Part shown: positions 3,145-8,572 of the stretch, in pieces
Layout: each line of letters starts with the position of its first letter
Position numbering within the stretch: the stretch's first letter is position 1
From: a virus
Taxonomy: Duplodnaviria > Heunggongvirae > Uroviricota > Caudoviricetes
Reading direction: 5' to 3' (one strand)
DNA: 8,755 nt
IMG/VR virus record: IMGVR_UViG_2703718800_000013
Location: 1 to 8,755 of that record
Notes under the pieces: generated by a model
Told to the model about the DNA's origin: nothing
What the model saw: only the letters and a program-made list of their open reading frames with translations
Database searches by the model: none
Made by a program: the position numbers and the translations under genes

Positions 3145-3527
3145 TCAGACAGATGAAACTGTACGCCATGCATTACTGATATATATCTGCACAGGACGGA
3201 AATAAACCCCGCCAATGTTATCGGCAGAGTTTTTTCCTGTTTCCTGCACGTTAATACCGGAAAGCATACAACCGGAAGGCGCACTGTAATTCCATGACAT
3301 TTCATTGCCTCCGGGTGAATGATAGCTCTGTGCTCCAAGCTGAACGTTCTGTACATACCGGTCATCTGCGGTTGACTGCGTCATCCCTGAAGTAATGCTG
3401 ATATCCTGCGTCCCGTCGAAAGGAACACCATTAATATTTCTTGGGGTGGCGAGTTTATTCGCTGCCGCAGCGGTGCCGTCCGATGGCAGGGCATTCGCCG
3501 CCTTATTTACCGTTTCCCGTAAACCGA
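3145..3527 (-). CDS. Alternative tail-fibre C-terminal cassette (Sv'-like), silent in this orientation
   Basis: The minus-strand frame is open from the core at 3526-3527 through the inverted repeat (encoding the same 49 aa as the + copy) into a distinct ~77-aa C-terminus (MTQSTADDRYVQNVQLGAQ...), which parallels the + copy (MTESTANQRYVTGVRLGAQ...). It has no start codon or RBS of its own at its 5' end. Confidence 0.75.
3379..3527. repeat. Right arm of the perfect 149-bp inverted repeat
   Basis: Reverse complement of 2101-2249. Confidence 0.95.
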
Positions 3528-3539
3528 GGTTTCAGGGAT
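3514..3539. promoter_or_regulatory. Right crossover site for the DNA invertase (gix/hix-like)
   Basis: TTCCCGTAAACC-GA-GGTTTCAGGGAT, with core GA (3526-3527) that is the inverse of the left-site core TC. The inner half-site equals the reverse complement of the left site's inner half-site. It lies directly upstream of the invertase gene, as gixR does relative to gin. Confidence 0.7.
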
Positions 3540-4244: not shown

Positions 4245-6326
4245 ATGAATATTATGACGTCCAAATGGGTTCAACTATCATCAATGCCCGGAAACTTTAC
4301 CGTTAAAGTTTCCGGTGGTACAGCGGCATTTCTTGAGGCTCCCTTTCCTCCGGCTGAAACGAAAGGAGGTATGACATTTGCTGACTGTCTCATCAGTTTT
4401 AATACACGGGATTGCCTGTGGGTAAGGCCAGTATCCGGTGATCCGAACGTGGAAATTACCGGAGCGGGTATTGGTGCTGTCATTCCGTTAAGTGCTGATG
4501 TTGCCGGTACTACTGAACCGTCAGACTGGAACAATGCGGAAACATACACTTCCTCAGCAGGAGATAAAGTTGCAGGTCAAACTCCGTCCTGGTATTACGT
4601 GGTTGTTATTGCTGGTCAGTCGAATGCATCGTCATTTGGTGAAGGTCTTCCTTTGCCTGATACCTATGATCGACCTGATCCACGTATTAAACAGCTGGCT
4701 CGCCGTAACACGGTTACACCTGGCGGGGTTGAATGCGCCTACAACGATATAATTCCGGCAGATCACTGTCTTCATGATGTGCTGGATATGAGTAACCATA
4801 ATCATCCAAAAGCAGATCTTTCAAAAGGTCAGTATGGTTGTGTCGGCCAGGGTTTGCATATTGCAAAAAAACTCCTGCCCTTTATCCCGGAAGAGGCTGG
4901 TATCCTTCTGGTTCCCTGTGCCAGAGGAGGCTCTGCATTTACCGATGGTGCTGATGGTGAATTTACTGAAGCTTCCGGAGCAACATCTGCATCATCGCGC
5001 TGGGGAGTCAATAAACCTTTGTTCAGCGATCTTGTTAACCGAACAAAAGCGGCTCTCAGCAGTAACCCCAGAAATATTCTCCTGTCCGTTGTCTGGATGC
5101 AGGGCGAGAATGATCTGAAAACAGGAAAACATGCTGAACATTCCGGTCTGTTTGTGACGATGGTCGAAACATTCAGGCGTGAACTTTCGGCTTTTTCTGC
5201 GCAATCTCCAGCCGGAGATATGGCTTCTGTACCGTGGATCTGTGGTGATACGACGTATTACTGGAAAAATACATATCCAGAACAATACAAAGCTGTTTAT
5301 GGCAAATATGCTAATGAAGCAAAGAACATTCACTTTGTTCCATTTGTTGTGGATGAAAATGGAAAAAATGTACCGACAAATAATCCAGATGAAGACCCGG
5401 ATATTCCAGGTATTGGCTATTATGGTGCCATAAGTCGCGATTCGACTAACTGGACATCAAACGACAGGGCAAGCCATTTCAGTTCATGGGCGCGCCGTGG
5501 AATTATTTCAGACCGTCTGGCAACAGCGATTCTGACATTGTCAGGACAAAAATCTGCTTTCTTCCGCGGTGTAACGGCAACAGAACATTCTGATACCGGT
5601 AAGAGTGAGCCTGAACCCACCGGGGATGTGAAGGACGTGAGCGATCAGATGAAGATCATCGTTTCGTATACTGCAAACGCCCCGACAGAACCAATGAAAG
5701 ATCAGGGGTGGAATGCGGCTTCCGGAAAAGCAACCTTTGTCACGGATGCTGCTGCAACAGGTGGTAACAAAGCGTTAAGGGTGAATAAAGCGCCTAACAG
5801 CATGGCCTCATGGAAAATGTATCATCCGATCACAGCTGATAATGCCAGGGATTTGTTCGCCAGAGGTGGTGATATTTCCCTCCGTTTCAAAATTCCATCG
5901 GATGCGGGCATTGCGGAAAACCGGTATGGTGTTGGTATTTACTGGGCTGTAAGTAACTGGCCTGACGGTGACGGAAAAAATAACCTCATCGCATCATGTT
6001 TCCTGCAAACGGATTCAGCTAACCTGAATGTGATGTATCACAAAGGGAGCGGAAGTCAACAGATAGGATCGTATGGTGTCTTTGATCATGAATGGCATAC
6101 GCTCTCGTTACGGTTTGCAGGTGGTAATAGCATGAGTGTTACCCCAGTTCTGGACGGGAAAGATGGTGAACCATTTGAACTTGTGAAGTGGGTGAATGCC
6201 GGGTTCACGGTGGATCAACTGACACTGACCGATATTACCGGCAATGCAGCCACTTACCCGATGTTGTTTGACACAATTAAAGTGCAGGTTAACGATGCGG
6301 TCTCTTCGTCTAATGTGAATAAATGA
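4245..6326 (+). CDS. SASA/SGNH-family carbohydrate esterase (sialate O-acetylesterase-like; NanS-p-like) with an N-terminal extension and a C-terminal lectin-like domain
   Basis: 693-aa ORF. The GQSN nucleophile motif is encoded at nt 4614-4625, a QGEND block at about 5099-5113, and a downstream D-x3-H (SNDRASHF) follows, the three signature blocks of SASA-type esterases. The ~250-aa C-terminal region looks like a beta-sandwich carbohydrate-binding domain (inference). An alternative start is ATG at 4254. Confidence 0.75.
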   Translation: MNIMTSKWVQLSSMPGNFTVKVSGGTAAFLEAPFPPAETKGGMTFADCLISFNTRDCLWVRPVSGDPNVEITGAGIGAVIPLSADVAGTTEPSDWNNAETYTSSAGDKVAGQTPSWYYVVVIAGQSNASSFGEGLPLPDTYDRPDPRIKQLARRNTVTPGGVECAYNDIIPADHCLHDVLDMSNHNHPKADLSKGQYGCVGQGLHIAKKLLPFIPEEAGILLVPCARGGSAFTDGADGEFTEASGATSASSRWGVNKPLFSDLVNRTKAALSSNPRNILLSVVWMQGENDLKTGKHAEHSGLFVTMVETFRRELSAFSAQSPAGDMASVPWICGDTTYYWKNTYPEQYKAVYGKYANEAKNIHFVPFVVDENGKNVPTNNPDEDPDIPGIGYYGAISRDSTNWTSNDRASHFSSWARRGIISDRLATAILTLSGQKSAFFRGVTATEHSDTGKSEPEPTGDVKDVSDQMKIIVSYTANAPTEPMKDQGWNAASGKATFVTDAAATGGNKALRVNKAPNSMASWKMYHPITADNARDLFARGGDISLRFKIPSDAGIAENRYGVGIYWAVSNWPDGDGKNNLIASCFLQTDSANLNVMYHKGSGSQQIGSYGVFDHEWHTLSLRFAGGNSMSVTPVLDGKDGEPFELVKWVNAGFTVDQLTLTDITGNAATYPMLFDTIKVQVNDAVSSSNVNK

Positions 6327-6355
6327 CGGGTAATTCATTTTATTTAAAATGGTGA

Positions 6356-6541
6356 GTGATTATGCCAATACTACATACATTTATGCTTTATTTTTGCACG
6401 TGTGTGTGTCTGCTTTATCTCCTCAGCGGAGGTTACAAAATTATCCGAAATTATTTTCGAAATAAAATTGATGCAGCCGCAGAGGAAAAGATAAAAAGCG
6501 GTGCTGTAATGCCGCAGCCGAAAGACTCCGGTCAGATTTAA
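6356..6541 (+). CDS. Hypothetical small protein with a hydrophobic N-terminus (questionable)
   Basis: 61-aa ORF in an A+T-rich intergenic-looking stretch with a weak RBS. The hydrophobic N-terminal 25 aa might be a membrane helix, but this could equally be a non-coding leader or promoter region. Confidence 0.25.
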   Translation: MIMPILHTFMLYFCTCVCLLYLLSGGYKIIRNYFRNKIDAAAEEKIKSGAVMPQPKDSGQI

Positions 6542-6576
6542 TTTTTTGTGAACCAGAAAAGGAAAGGAGAATATTC

Positions 6577-6822
6577 ATGCCAGAGATTAAAGGCACGGTT
6601 ACTGAAGAGCTTGTCAAACAGGCACTTTATTCTGAAGAAGTGAACCGCGTGCTGAAGGCGCAGGTTCGCAAGGATTTTGAGGCACAAATCGACGCATATG
6701 TTGATGAAGTGCTGGCCCGAATGGTTGGCCATTCTCCGGCTGAAAACAGCACGGAGAATGAGCCTCAGCCCGTAGAGCAACCAGAGCCGGTTCAGCCCGG
6801 AACTGACAGTGCCATGATGTAA
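6577..6822 (+). CDS. Hypothetical small acidic protein
   Basis: 81-aa ORF with a strong RBS (AAAGGAAAGGAGA, 7 nt before the ATG). It has a helical-looking N-terminal half and a Pro/Glu-rich tail. I do not recognise a family. Confidence 0.55.
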   Translation: MPEIKGTVTEELVKQALYSEEVNRVLKAQVRKDFEAQIDAYVDEVLARMVGHSPAENSTENEPQPVEQPEPVQPGTDSAMM

Positions 6823-6896
6823 CAATACAAACCGACAGCTTCTCCTGTCGGTTTGATTTTCATGGGCGATGTATATACCAGTCAGAGGAAATAATC

Positions 6897-7097
6897 ATGG
6901 ACAAGAACAAAAAGCAGCCCGATACCAAAGGTCTGGAAATATTAAGCGCAGAAATTATCAATGCGCTACGTTCAGGACTTGATGAAAATACATTACAGGA
7001 TCGAAACTTCACCACTGCAATGTGGATAGCGATGCAGATCCTGTGTACCCCAAGATGCGCTATTTTTGCGGTTCGTGAGGGTCAGTTGACTCGCTGA
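6897..7097 (+). CDS. Hypothetical small protein
   Basis: 66-aa ORF with RBS GAGGAA 7 nt upstream. No family recognised. Confidence 0.5.
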   Translation: MDKNKKQPDTKGLEILSAEIINALRSGLDENTLQDRNFTTAMWIAMQILCTPRCAIFAVREGQLTR

Positions 7098-7266
7098 TTG
7101 CCCGAATTACATCAGAAAAGCACGCGTTCCATAATTGCATAGCTGATGAATCACCAGCTGTATGAAAAGAGGTAAAGACACAACTGGTGGATGTCATTGC
7201 TGCAATTGTGATATCAGCTGCAATTCGCGCAGCCTGTAACTTTTGGTCGGTGGTCAGTTTATCCAT
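7060..7266 (-). CDS. Hypothetical small protein, convergent with and overlapping the 3' end of the 6897..7097 ORF
   Basis: The ORF track gives 7060..7290; an internal ATG at 7266 has a much better RBS (AGGAGAAA). Codon usage looks plausible, but no family is recognised and a + strand terminator downstream implies antisense read-through. Confidence 0.35.
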   Translation of the reverse strand: MDKLTTDQKLQAARIAADITIAAMTSTSCVFTSFHTAGDSSAMQLWNACFSDVIRAISESTDPHEPQK

Positions 7267-7380
7267 TTTCTCCTGCCTGAACAGATGCATCTCTGCTTTA
7301 CAGGAGGCCGGGGAATATCATAGGATACACCACGAGCTCAGAGTGAAGCATTGATGCAGTTTTTTACAGATTGACCCAGA

Positions 7381-7417
7381 ACCCAGCATAGTTCCAGCTA
7401 TGCTGGGTTTCCCTTTT
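7381..7417 (+). terminator. Rho-independent terminator (+ strand)
   Basis: Perfect 11-bp stem ACCCAGCATAG (7381-7391) / CTATGCTGGGT (7398-7408) with loop TTCCAG, followed by TTCCCTTTTAT. Confidence 0.55.
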
Positions 7418-7640
7418 ATGTAGTATCCTGTTGATTTGAAACATACTACATATACGCGCGATCCTACCTTCACTGGATAAAAAGGCAATAAAATGATCAT
7501 TTTATGATCGTTTTCACCACCTAACTCTTCGTTTTCTTTAAGTAAATAATCACCGCCCTGAATCATTGTTGATGACTTTTCAATCTATTTGTTGTATCAA
7601 TTAAACAAATCGAATCGATCGTTTTTGTCGATCGATTGCA
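7418..7640. promoter_or_regulatory. Candidate com-mom regulatory region with palindromes and clustered GATC sites
   Basis: A 9-bp inverted repeat ATGTAGTAT (7418-7426) / ATACTACAT (7443-7451). Five GATC sites at 7460, 7495, 7506, 7617 and 7630. A second palindrome AATCGATCG (7612-7620) / CGATCGATT (7628-7636) embeds two of them. A weak possible promoter is ATGACT (7573-7578), 16 bp, TATCAA (7595-7600). Confidence 0.4.
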
Positions 7641-7680
7641 TGAGAAAGGCATCAACAACAAAGCAGGAGGTTATGCGGCC

Positions 7681-7881
7681 ATGTATCGAAACATACGGTG
7701 CCGACACTGCAATAAGCTACTGGCACGGGCCAGTTTCAGTTATCTGGAAGTAAAATGTCCGCGCTGTAAAACCCTCAATCAAATCACATCTCCGAGCGCC
7801 ACAGAGCACCCCACATACACAAGGAAATCCTGTCGTGGGGAACAGAAAGCAAGTCACATCCCGTATCATCAGCACGCCTGA
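7681..7881 (+). CDS. com: Com, zinc-finger translational activator of mom
   Basis: 66-aa product [14 protein letters not shown]...KCPRCK with CxxC-x15-CxxC spacing like Mu Com. AGGAGG at 7665-7670 precedes the ATG at 7681; the track start at 7636 lacks an RBS. The 3' end overlaps the mom start. Confidence 0.8.
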
Positions 7882-8572
7882 ACTTATTCGCTATAACGAC
7901 AATATCGTTGGTTATGGCTCCCGTGAGTTGCGGGTTGAGACAATAAGTTGCTGGCTGGCCAGACTGGTCATCGTCAATAAACATTACAGCCACCGTTTCG
8001 TAAATAACTCCTACCTTCATCTGGGCATATTTTCAGAACGGGAACTTGTTGGCGTAATGCAATGGGGTTACGCCCTTAACCCAAACAGTGGTGCACGCGT
8101 CGTAACGGGTACGCAGAACCGAGAATATATGGAGCTTAACCGGCTATGGCTGCATGACTGTATGCCGAGAAACTCCGAATCAAGGGCAATCAGTTACGCG
8201 CTCAAGCTAATCAGGCAGCTTTATCCGCAGGTACAGTGGGTTCAGTCGTTTGCAGATGAGCGTTGTGGCTGTCTTGGTGTCGTGTATCAGGCAAGCAATT
8301 TTGATTATGTAGGCAGCCATGAAACAATATTCTATGAACTTGATGGCGAGTGGTATCACGAGATTTGCAGGAATGCCATTAAACGAGGCGGACAACGAGG
8401 TGAACATCTGAGGGCTAATATCGACAGAGCCAGTGTGCATAAGTTCCGACAGTTTCGTTACATCCGGTTTCTGAACAAGAGGGCCAGAAAACGCCTCAAC
8501 ACAAAGCTATTCAAAGTCCAGCCTTACCCAAAACCACAAACAGTTAAAACTGGTTTGAAAGAGAGTGAATGA
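7835..8572 (+). CDS. mom: Mom, DNA modification (adenine carbamoylmethylation) anti-restriction protein
   Basis: 245-aa ORF starting at GTG 7835, inside the 3' end of com in another frame; this is the com-mom arrangement of Mu. Its size and its position at the phage right end fit. The exact start codon is uncertain. Confidence 0.8.

Follow-up and report, generated by a model that had tools for sequence, protein, structure and literature searches.

Convergent transcription units that act as cis-antisense switches include prgQ/prgX of the Enterococcus plasmid pCF10 and the face-to-face pR and pL promoters of coliphage 186. Morons, or lysogenic-conversion genes, are accessory genes that lie between conserved phage genes, often with a promoter and a terminator of their own and often oriented against the phage operons. 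In Streptomyces, the convergent pair scbA/scbR also works as a cis-antisense switch (PMC3134472). The regulatory scheme of the Mu mom gene has likewise been described, and a divergent promoter, momP2, is documented in the mom region (PMC3378877).

The locus discussed here lies in a window of 8,755 nucleotides, by which we mean the whole stretch of phage DNA analysed. It holds two small genes, A and B, that face each other and overlap at their 3' ends:

6828–6855, both strands: hairpin terminator, 11-bp stem with a T-rich tail on each strand
6885–6889, plus strand: Shine-Dalgarno GAGGA of gene A, spaced 7 nt from its ATG, read directly from the sequence
6897–7097, plus strand: gene A, 66 aa, ATG start; soluble, predicted helical
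7060–7097: tail-to-tail coding overlap, 38 bp, both stop codons included
7060–7266, minus strand: gene B, 68 aa; soluble, acidic, predicted two-helix hairpin
7270–7274, minus strand: Shine-Dalgarno AGGAG of gene B (CTCCT on the plus strand), at a short distance of 3 nt from ATG 7266
7379–7420, plus strand: intrinsic terminator of the A strand, 14-bp stem (hairpin 7379–7410) followed by the T-tract TTTCCCTTTTAT

Like prgQ/prgX, the 186 pR/pL pair and scbA/scbR, A and B belong to facing units with no terminator between them. In pairs of this type, collision and complementary RNA are expected to lower expression of the opposite strand, and a bistable or phase-specific switch is possible. Those systems, however, involve a known regulator and measured reciprocity, whereas A and B are orphan proteins of ~65 aa with putative promoters; they carry no DNA- or RNA-binding signature and belong to a cassette that is mobile between two positions in phage genomes. 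The pair also recalls morons, since it sits between conserved genes and next to cargo, is absent from Mu and is represented by A only in phage Tongde. Also moron-like are the hairpins that bracket it in the window (6828–6855 and 7379–7410, the right one possibly belonging to the mom region) and the orientation of B against the late operon behind a conserved −10-like element, a candidate promoter only, given that consensus scans perform at chance. A moron typically forms one transcription unit, whereas this pair, which looks obligate, has its genes on opposite strands with overlapping 3' ends. Nor does it have the deviant base composition used as a criterion for morons, its G+C content being undistinctive (0.437, rounded 0.44, against 0.45–0.47 in neighbouring cargo and 0.478 in the whole window). 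Finally, the surroundings resemble the Mu mom control region in having com-mom, upstream GATC sites and a possible leftward transcription start. B lies on the strand and on the side that momP2-like leftward transcription would read, a putative equivalence; Mu has no gene at the position of B, and the cassette is found, too, at places that lack a mom region, in the late operon or beside HEPN-containing cargo. The protein families of A (through its relatives) and B correspond to phrog_21398 and phrog_25148, neither of which records the paired convergent arrangement.

Coding capacity of the two frames

The initial annotation of this DNA had described convergent ORFs at 6897..7097 (plus) and 7060..7266 (minus), with a 38-bp 3' overlap and a ribosome-binding site on each. 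All of this is present in the sequence, with GAGGA at 7 nt from A and AGGAG at 3 nt, which is short, from B. The Shine-Dalgarno of A is kept in divergent E. coli alleles, and B relatives have GAGGA or AAGAGG at 5–7 nt from their start codons. The choice of 7266 as the start of B was also sound. A longer version of 76 aa beginning at ATG 7290, given in the program's ORF list, is not conserved: in alleles of ~9% divergence this ATG is lost and set off by a 1-bp indel, which leaves it out of frame and makes ATG 7266 the conserved start.

That annotation had allowed that one of the two ORFs might not be real, and had proposed an analysis of conservation and synonymous substitution across homologues. 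The comparative outcome refutes that alternative. Among the ~9%-divergent E. coli alleles both genes are under purifying selection, with pN/pS of 0.12 for A (11 synonymous and 5 non-synonymous substitutions, p = 6e-5) and 0.13 for B (17 and 7, p = 1.3e-6). Of 19 variable sites, 13 fall at third codon positions of B, and the codon phase of variable sites in these alleles switches at about 7098. Homologues preserve both frames; across lineages synonymous sites are saturated, and pS exceeds pN in all comparisons. The B frame is the sole one open in 9/9 lineages compared; a plus-strand ORF at 7187–7354, which shares B's third codon positions and could have produced the period-3 signal, contains stops in every lineage. 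Taken together, purifying selection on both frames, the open B frame in nine lineages and the recurrence of convergence indicate that the arrangement is more than chance. By these patterns of substitution, A and B are both shown to be genuine genes, for what are predicted to be small soluble proteins.

The products are mildly acidic, with GRAVY values of −0.70 to +0.07, and neither contains a membrane-like segment (Kyte-Doolittle 19-residue maxima of 1.53 for A and 1.23 for B in the window, lower in other lineages). The A family is marked by the conserved motif RNFxxAMW[IV]AMQxxCxP, and the AF2 model of A is helical (mean pLDDT 63). In B the N-terminus, (K)[ED]KLT[IT]DQK[LI]Q.A, is nearly invariant while its codons vary synonymously, and the middle of the protein is highly variable; AF2 places helices at residues 8–37 and 40–60 (mean pLDDT 74). 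The two proteins are unrelated, an inverted duplication having an hhalign probability of 0.4%. Two structural readings of B were considered and set aside. For Rop/Rom, none of the eight B-family members has a Pfam match at E <= 5, and Foldseek gives E = 5–9 with TM ~0.48–0.49, many unrelated helical hairpins scoring equally well. The KLTID segment, which we take to resemble the strands of ribbon-helix-helix proteins, suggested the other; there is no Pfam match, and the AF2 model is a continuous helix from residue 8 without a strand.

Window A is 37% identical to its counterpart in the Salmonella pair (E = 2e-12). It has no match to phrog_21398 (function unknown) at E <= 0.01; this profile is matched by 9 of the 12 aligned A relatives, up to 5.4e-29, and the matching relatives are 37% identical to A. 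All eight B-family members match phrog_25148 (function unknown; best E = 1.2e-8), window B doing so at E = 1.3e-4 over profile positions 3–27 of 61. PGAP labels A as a hypothetical protein (WP_001536755.1), and in the RefSeq loci L001 and L002 it annotates only A, leaving B unannotated. No match to either protein was found in Pfam, NCBIfam or PADLOC, toxin-antitoxin and defence models included, nor any similarity to terminase-associated families. A tblastn search of 50,697 phage records with A, B and P0010 as queries returned nothing, profile searches of PDB sequences gave a best E of 0.18, and Foldseek against BFVD and PDB, run with models of only moderate confidence, gave a best E of about 1 for B and none for A. 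Rfam across 6700–7750 was likewise empty. Scans of reference-genome contigs also returned nothing, the tblastn confirmation step being probably too strict for ~38% identity over 65 aa, and no paper was found under the gene, protein or PHROG identifiers.

Distribution of the pair among Mu-like prophages

Homologues with 20–40% protein identity occur in Mu-like prophages of Salmonella, Citrobacter, Mixta and Erwinia, and pairs of this build are present in E. coli, S. enterica, S. diarizonae, Citrobacter, Mixta, Erwinia and IMG/VR contigs. The A family spans five genera plus Yersinia phage Tongde. An exhaustive HMM search recovered full-length B relatives, the distant ones 34–40% identical, and each of these has a convergent partner homologous to A. 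Throughout the HMM survey, which covered 45 fetched loci and the window, every B locus was accompanied by a convergent A, and the 3' overlap was present everywhere except in one damaged copy (L044); B without A was found at none of the loci examined. These loci show that Mu-like (Muvirus-type) prophages carry A and B as a two-gene cassette, undescribed until now and inherited together.

The cassette occupies two sites, A having the orientation of the phage operons and B being antisense to them. The first site lies near com-mom (as in the window), com-dcm or HEPN-containing cargo. Here, in E. coli and S. enterica, the pair is far from the packaging genes and amid accessory cargo, its neighbours including a NanS-p-like esterase module, Mom, a methyltransferase and, in relatives, a HEPN-domain protein. 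The second site is in the late operon, between the genes for the small and large terminase subunits, where B is antisense to the operon. The gene for the large terminase and gp27 (small terminase) immediately flank A in S. diarizonae, Citrobacter, Mixta, Erwinia, several IMG/VR contigs and Tongde; in loci L027–L033 there is an 8-nt overlap between A and the stop of the small ORF before it. Neither gene exists in phage Mu, whose two terminase genes are separated by 7 nt, while Tongde carries A alone; the genes are therefore accessory. The Mu-like prophage Sp18 has no cassette at its right end.

The partnership is not obligatory for A, since A is found without B in Tongde, L007 and L013, and L020 has a mutated B start codon next to an intact A. 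L007 and L013 do not represent an independent A-only arrangement; they result from a 405-bp deletion between AATCACC repeats. A further pair of loci, L021 and L022, have nearly identical A and very different B, a pattern that speaks against close and specific co-evolution of the two proteins through an interface in the variable part of B.

Transcription geometry and the region upstream of B

The left hairpin (6828–6855; −17.0 and −18.6 kcal/mol on the two strands, z = −4.0 and −4.4) closes the plus-strand DUF6645-DUF1378-DUF826 operon and forms the left edge of the cassette, homology to cassette-less Mu-like prophages stopping just to its right. It is the first terminator-like site for a minus-strand transcript from B, once past all of A, and B-strand hairpins are found past A at equivalent positions in L027 and L033. 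This hairpin had not been listed in the initial annotation. On the other side, the 7379–7410 hairpin (−22.5 kcal/mol, z = −6.05) is the only terminator-like plus-strand site after A and is placed beyond both B and B's upstream block. Its relatives display four versions of the stem, all at −18 to −22 kcal/mol, with compensatory changes and with G.T pairs tolerated only on the plus strand. No terminator-like site or stable structure was detected between or within A and B in the window, L022, L027 or L033, and the overlap itself is devoid of unusual or stable structure (z = +0.42 and −0.01).

With terminators only outside the pair, a transcript of A would cross the whole of B and its upstream block in antisense before ending at 7379–7420, and a transcript of B would likewise cross the whole of A in antisense before reaching 6855–6828; the two transcripts would thus overlap. 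The earlier statements that the only plus-strand terminator (7379–7410 and its T-tract) lies beyond the minus-strand ORF, with none between the genes, and that plus-strand transcription would cross the whole minus-strand gene, hold for the window, and the convergent geometry is conserved in five genera and two genomic contexts. Owing to this conservation, mutually exclusive or antisense-coupled expression is a reasonable reading, and the pair may be under antisense control. The coding overlap itself varies in length among lineages (38, 26, 20 or 11 nt). Of the six substitutions that E. coli alleles show within it, five alter B but leave the amino acids of A unchanged; with only A's frame constrained there, the overlap may simply reflect compaction.

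The DNA to the right of B contains the following elements:

7267–7378, minus strand: non-coding block preceding B; no other DNA of the locus is as well conserved between E. coli and Salmonella
7283–7292: perfect palindrome AGATGCATCT, 10 bp, ~20 nt upstream of B
~7352–7361: second palindrome GCATCAATGC, in the upstream block of B
7318–7566, minus strand: ECs_4996-like N-terminal remnant, frameshifted (phrog_26524; a pseudogene according to PGAP)
7460–7509: GATC sites at 7460, 7495 and 7506, in the mom upstream control region; context, outside the cassette
7681–7881, plus strand: com (Pfam Zn_ribbon_Com, E = 3e-12; PGAP)
7835–8572, plus strand: mom (Pfam Mom, E = 1e-77; PGAP)

Between E. coli and Salmonella the upstream block is 61–66% identical, against 44–50% for the two coding sequences. 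In Salmonella the ECs_4996 frame is interrupted by a stop within the block, so the constraint is not due to protein coding. The palindrome at 7283–7292 changes symmetrically, to AGATATATCT in other E. coli alleles and to TAATGCATTA in Salmonella, which makes it a candidate operator. Homology to the cassette-less Sp18 resumes at its centre (~7285), the right edge of the swapped segment. Since Sp18 also has the right hairpin and the upstream block, these may be part of the mom control region and not of the cassette; the 7379–7420 terminator probably insulates that control region from upstream transcription. Within the block, the best B-directed promoter-like match is TTCACT-19 nt-TATGAT, with an unusual 19-nt spacer, and a second match, TTTACA-18 nt-TAGGAT (7297–7326), points toward the right hairpin; taken alone, sigma-70 consensus matches occur here at chance frequency, as scans of the window and of relatives' loci indicate. 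In the late-operon lineages, a −10-like element at −40 to −45 of B and the AAGAGG Shine-Dalgarno of B are each conserved in 8/8. A potential anti-Shine-Dalgarno pairing in the leader of window B (CUCCUG/CAGGAG) was discarded, as it is not conserved in Salmonella.

The frameshifted ECs_4996-like remnant lies upstream of B and overlaps the mom control region. In L002-type alleles the corresponding ORF is 99 aa long and its stop overlaps the B start (ATGGATAA), so that translational coupling would be possible there. B is not itself the C-terminal remnant of such a gene, tblastn similarity stopping at the shared N-terminus and B having a family of its own. The layout of the GATC sites resembles the Dam/OxyR site cluster of Mu Pmom and suggests a homologous arrangement. 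The com and mom genes (7681..8572, plus) form the right-end operon of a Mu-like prophage and are mentioned as context only.

A model of reciprocal expression and its alternatives

We propose that A and B form an accessory cassette of the prophage in which antisense coupling makes their expression reciprocal, a reading to which we assign a probability of about 0.5 on the basis of comparative evidence. A is co-oriented with the phage operons, be it the late operon or gin and the accessory genes, and should therefore be made when these are transcribed. B, pointing against them, would be driven from its own upstream region, which in the late-operon lineages offers the conserved −10-like element, some 42 nt ahead of the start codon, and in the right-end lineages a conserved ~110-bp block with palindromes, adjoining the mom control region. 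The orientation of B, its own upstream region and the presence of momP2 in Mu make B the better candidate for expression in the lysogen. Expression of the two genes would be reciprocal through collision of RNA polymerases, through pairing of roughly 450 nt of complementary RNA, or both, and B would be switched off as phage transcription sweeps through.

The strongest competitor, to which we give appreciably less credence, holds that A and B are independent morons that lie tail to tail by chance; the overlap and the flanking terminators that they share would then result from genome compaction, and neither regulation nor function would couple them. Compact phage genomes often contain short convergent 3' overlaps, and it would agree with such an origin that the overlap has no fixed length (38, 26, 20, 11 nt) and in E. 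coli constrains only A's frame. Further points in its favour are that A and B are unrelated proteins, that A stands alone in Tongde and in deletion derivatives, and that B alleles can be exchanged beside an unchanged A. Against it, B never occurs without A in the loci examined, the orientation is always convergent, and the pair has been kept at two unrelated positions in five genera despite saturated synonymous sites. In the late-operon version, moreover, B is embedded antisense in an essential operon, and there the transcription of one strand must come into physical conflict with that of the other.

A toxin-antitoxin-like module, with a small toxin restrained by antisense transcription or by the protein of the convergent partner, appears improbable. 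The geometry would be compatible, and a pair of small genes would be at home among the many conflict genes of this prophage region (Mom, a cytosine methyltransferase and, in relatives, the HEPN-domain protein). The initial annotation had likewise raised a small, possibly toxic, protein. This idea finds no support, as neither product has a membrane-like segment or a match among the Pfam, NCBIfam and PADLOC toxin-antitoxin and defence models. A type I system would call for a small hydrophobic membrane-active protein, whereas A and B are mildly acidic and soluble, and in either direction the antisense partner is a protein gene under purifying selection, not a small RNA. A type II system would be a co-directional operon with toxin and antitoxin domains; these genes are convergent and have none. 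B is lost or disabled beside an intact A in L007, L013 and L020, and A is alone in the phage isolate Tongde. With B always accompanied by A, and with A lying along operons that are expected to be silent in the lysogen, neither assignment of toxin and antitoxin fits simply.

We regard as equally improbable a role of A, and perhaps of B, as accessory factors in DNA packaging or late morphogenesis, the mom-side copy having been displaced. The most diverse location of the pair, between the small and large terminase genes, would suit this role, as would the 8-nt overlap of A with the preceding small ORF in L027–L033. Mu, however, packages its DNA without either gene, and the E. coli and S. enterica pairs reside in accessory cargo far from the packaging genes. 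The antisense orientation of B relative to the packaging operon is unlike that of structural or assembly genes, and neither protein resembles terminase-associated families. Lastly, that one ORF is a chance open frame and only the other a gene, as the PGAP calls of A alone in RefSeq loci and the 3-nt Shine-Dalgarno spacing of window B might suggest, is very hard to reconcile with strong purifying selection on both, frame-preserving homologues of 20–40% identity in five genera, and, for B, a frame open in all lineages, a synonymously varying motif and good Shine-Dalgarno sequences in relatives.

Returning to reciprocal expression, one may ask what the cassette does. The absence of B without A, the invariant N-terminus of B and its fast-evolving, exchangeable body suggest that B may be an effector of the lysogenic phase. 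Speculatively, B could act in exclusion or in another host/phage conflict, and transcription of A, or the A protein, would cancel B in lytic growth. A still more specific version, which we hold to be doubtful, is a new, self-contained module in which the small lysogen effector B lies antisense within or beside phage operons and A serves as its off-switch by collision and antisense RNA, and maybe by binding B's invariant N-terminal helix, so that an exclusion or defence function would not hinder the phage's own lytic growth. The fast-evolving body of B would be in keeping with a part in phage-phage or phage-host conflict.

In any event, two ORFs that were hypothetical or unannotated become a defined, conserved two-gene unit, and the pair is present on hundreds of E. 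coli and Salmonella contigs, including those of Shiga-toxin-producing strains. The absence of B from the RefSeq annotation of the examined loci exemplifies how small genes on the antisense strand escape notice. What is unusual in the late-operon version is that a protein gene under purifying selection lies antisense between the terminase genes of an essential operon; this offers a compact natural setting in which to study transcriptional interference between convergent phage genes that both code for proteins. Should B indeed be a lysogen effector that A antagonizes, the prophage conflict systems would gain a new small-protein module, and it would be easier to explain why the mom-side region is a hotspot for cargo.

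The pair in its prophage setting

The window is the right end of an E. coli Mu-like prophage. Chromosomes of several E. coli strains, some of them Shiga-toxin producers, match positions 6300-7650 at 99.7% identity except for a 72-bp indel. The relevant features are:

2097-2275 and 3353-3531: 179-nt inverted repeats, with tail-fibre genes around an invertible segment
3594-4154: Gin/Cin-type invertase
4245-6822: DUF6645/SASA esterase gene, DUF1378 gene, DUF826 gene
6897-7097, plus strand: gene A, 66 aa, GAGGA 7 nt ahead of the ATG
7060-7266, minus strand: gene B, 68 aa
7318-7566, minus strand: degraded ORF
upstream of com-mom: GATC-bearing control region
7681-7881: com
7835-8572: mom

The inverted repeats are 95% complementary. 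The 1,077 bp that they bracket lie between the ends of tail-fibre genes and next to the invertase gene, and form a G-segment-like invertible host-range switch. The DUF6645/SASA gene is sialate O-acetylesterase-like. Together with DUF1378 and DUF826 it lies between the invertase and the A/B pair as cargo of a Mu-like prophage; in lambdoid Stx phages this trio typically follows stx (the nanS-p module). Three GATC sites (7460, 7495 and 7506) are reminiscent of the cluster of Dam/OxyR sites that is known from Mu Pmom. Just upstream of com, an inverted repeat kept in relatives (AATCGATCGTTTTTGTCGATCGATT, 7613-7637) holds further GATCs at 7617 and 7630.

Both ORFs and their 38-bp overlap are present as described in the initial annotation. 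The ORF list extends B from its end at 7060 back to an ATG at 7290; alleles at ~9% divergence lack this codon, and a 1-bp indel puts the position out of frame in them, so the conserved start is 7266, as originally proposed. Folding of the overlap region revealed unusual structure on neither strand (z = +0.42 and -0.01). Also borne out is the claim that the plus strand lacks a terminator-like site from A until a hairpin with T-tract (7379-7410, z = -6.05). Another strong hairpin, at 6828-6855, is scored as a terminator whichever strand is read; it ends the DUF826 operon and is the first terminator-like site that a B transcript would meet, past all of A.

Two genes for small proteins

Twelve more copies, taken from genomes of E. 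coli, from metagenomes and from viral contigs, were aligned with the window. Among E. coli-type copies, 10 of the 14 variable sites left of ~7098 occupy third codon positions of A, and 13 of the 19 to the right occupy third positions of B. Outside the overlap, A shows 11 synonymous and 5 non-synonymous events (pN/pS 0.12, p = 6e-5); B shows 17 and 7 (pN/pS 0.13, p = 1.3e-6). Since one plus-strand frame has third positions in common with B, every frame was checked, and that of B was the sole one open throughout the nine lineages compared. All cross-lineage comparisons gave pS above pN in both genes, B being the faster-evolving (pN 0.22-0.45 versus 0.09-0.20 for A in the lineages carrying the pair between terminase genes). 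Five of the six changes within the overlap alter B yet are silent in A, indicating that the C-terminus of A is constrained and that the last residues of B are free to vary. The B N-terminus, (K)[ED]KLT[IT]DQK[LI]Q.A, is near-invariant while its codons vary synonymously, and the constraint is therefore on the protein. A and B are thus two real genes, both with homologues and both under purifying selection by the conservation and synonymous-substitution analysis that the initial annotation had called for; its alternative, that one ORF might be spurious, is refuted by the pN/pS values and the open B frame.

The two proteins, unrelated to one another, are soluble and mildly acidic, with no membrane-like segments; their AF2 models, of moderate confidence (mean pLDDT 74 for B, 63 for A), are helical hairpins. 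Nothing significant emerged from Pfam, NCBIfam or PADLOC scans, from profile searches of PDB sequences, from Foldseek against BFVD and PDB, or from Rfam across 6700-7750. The sole family matches are phrog_25148 (B) and phrog_21398 (relatives of A), neither with an assigned function. Relatives are all named "hypothetical protein" in databases, RefSeq annotates A and misses B in the two loci examined, and no paper in the literature searched mentions either gene.

Conservation and movement of the cassette

Word-indexed searches with the proteins returned near-identical matches only. An exhaustive HMM search with B reached full-length relatives in Salmonella (65-66 aa, 34-40% identity), each with a convergent partner on its contig and a 3' overlap of 26 nt; the partner is an A homologue (37% identity, E = 2e-12) with the common motif RNFxxAMW[IV]AMQxxCxP. 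An A-family profile search added Citrobacter, Mixta and Erwinia, where B is again convergent with a 26-nt overlap. When HMMs of both families were run over 45 fetched loci and the window, a convergent A was found at every B-bearing locus. Most lineages have an overlap of 26 nt; it is 38 nt in E. coli and, in two lineages of greater divergence, 20 or 11 nt. At one locus (L044) A is damaged and the overlap absent. The convergent, 3'-overlapping architecture is conserved across five genera and two genomic contexts.

The first context, in E. coli and S. enterica, is the prophage right end, after accessory genes trailing the invertase, where the neighbour on the other side is com-mom, com with a cytosine methyltransferase gene, or cargo including a HEPN-domain protein. 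The methyltransferase type (L005, L013, L024, L025) lacks mom. In the third type (Salmonella L022:2526-3839, also L023 and L026), three genes on B's strand stand where com-mom would be: one for a protein of 257 aa (phrog_17809), one for a HEPN-domain protein of 123 aa, whose PF05168 match falls exactly on the gathering cut-off, and a 43-aa ORF. The right end appears to be a hotspot for swapping defence and counter-defence genes. In the second context the pair is inside the late operon, flanked by gp27 (small terminase) and the large terminase, with A along the operon and B antisense to it. This arrangement occurs in S. diarizonae, Citrobacter, Mixta and Erwinia and on several viral contigs; in several of these lineages (L027-L033) a small ORF precedes A, and its stop and the A start overlap by 8 nt.

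Both genes are accessory: phage Mu has neither, its two terminase genes lying 7 nt apart, and only A of the two is present in Yersinia phage Tongde, an isolated Muvirus whose large terminase gene begins 25 nt past the A stop. The segment (~6856-7285) occurs in 15 of 5,426 complete E. coli genomes. A can stand alone; B has so far been found only with A. Most of B is gone in L007 and L013 through a 405-bp deletion between AATCACC repeats, and in L020 its start codon is replaced by ATA; A remains intact in both L013 and L020; in L007 it has an in-frame deletion of 10 aa. In that metagenomic copy (L007:923-1093) the 30 bp for residues 10-19 of A are gone in addition to the larger deletion, and A of L013 bears an A18T change. 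Between L021 and L022, A is almost identical and B strongly different, so B alleles have been swapped next to an unchanged A. The main rival explanation is that A and B are cargo genes independent of each other that happen to be packed tail to tail. This proposal is favoured by the variable overlap and the A-only phage, and opposed by the strict co-occurrence of B with A and by the joint relocation of the two.

Most E. coli Mu-like prophages carry, in place of the segment, the C-terminal half of ECs_4996, a 154-aa minus-strand ORF (phrog_26524; L004:2311-2775 in Sakai Sp18) with a C-terminal CxxC...CxxC. In Sp18-type prophages it overlaps the mom upstream control region, and PGAP often calls it frameshifted. 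Its middle part coincides with a DNA block kept as non-coding sequence in Salmonella, so ECs_4996 is only a putative gene. In the closest genomes, of L001 type, a ~79-bp unit that ends in the terminator hairpin is present twice, as diverged tandem copies, and 7285-7420 of the window looks like a recombinant between these two copies at CCCAG(A/C)A. There the window is 72 bp shorter than L001 (3980-4200), and compared with L002 it has gained 7 bases (CCCAGAA); the repeat change shifts the frame of the ECs_4996-like remnant, which is 82 aa in the window versus 99 aa in L002 and L008.

Control elements and a possible switch

The ~110 bp upstream of B (7267-7378) are 61-66% identical between E. coli and Salmonella, against 44-50% for the coding sequences, whose synonymous sites are saturated. 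The Salmonella version of this block has a stop in the ECs_4996 frame; its conservation therefore reflects non-coding constraint. A 10-bp palindrome at 7283-7292 changes yet stays palindromic (AGATGCATCT, AGATATATCT, TAATGCATTA). A further palindrome in the block is GCAT(C/T)AATGC. Promoter-like hexamers occur there on both strands, though, taken alone, these matches are at chance frequency. All eight late-operon lineages have AAGAGG 5-7 nt ahead of B and a -10-like element at -40 to -45 (TGATAATGT, TGGTAAGGT or GGTATAAAT). Leftward transcription toward the position of B has a precedent in Mu, where RNA polymerase is recruited, without the activator C, to the divergent promoter momP2 of the mom control region (PMC3378877).

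The 7379-7410 hairpin exists in four stem versions, all folding at -18 to -22 kcal/mol, and tolerates G.T pairs on the plus strand only, which makes it a real plus-strand RNA hairpin. Sp18 has it as well, so it is probably not specific to the cassette and instead keeps transcription from upstream out of the mom control region. On B's strand, terminator-like hairpins lie only past A, with equivalent positions in L027 and L033; terminators are confined to the outside of the pair. At 7297-7326 (+) is a promoter-like TTTACA-18 nt-TAGGAT, kept in Salmonella L022, followed ~55 nt on by the strong terminator (7379-7420). By its anatomy, 7297-7420 (+) is a candidate gene for a ~85-nt small RNA antisense to the region upstream of B; Rfam gave no match to it.

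From this arrangement we infer that each transcript reads antisense across the partner gene, in which case expression of A and B should be reciprocal. A would be produced whenever the phage operons are transcribed; B would be driven by its own upstream region, and the lysogen is the most plausible setting for that. It is tempting to speculate that B acts as an effector in the lysogenic phase, its body being exchangeable, and that A, or transcription of A, turns it off when the phage itself grows lytically. There is no support for a toxin-antitoxin reading, nor for the earlier idea of a possibly toxic protein, given the missing membrane-like segments and Pfam, NCBIfam and PADLOC matches.

On the late-operon strand of L027 (3930-4000), L032 and L033, a long hairpin (AGCCTCTTT...AAAGAGGCT) with T-tract TGTTTTTTCAC sits between B and the large terminase gene, just before the latter's start codon. 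It is kept with compensatory change in Citrobacter and holds, on the opposite strand, the Shine-Dalgarno sequence of B. A terminator-like element ahead of an essential late gene is unexpected.

The A/B pair is thus a genuine cassette, conserved and not described before. In architecture it belongs to a general kind already known from convergent cis-antisense pairs and phage morons; its protein families, though, are uncharacterised, and one of its placements, antisense between terminase genes, is unusual.
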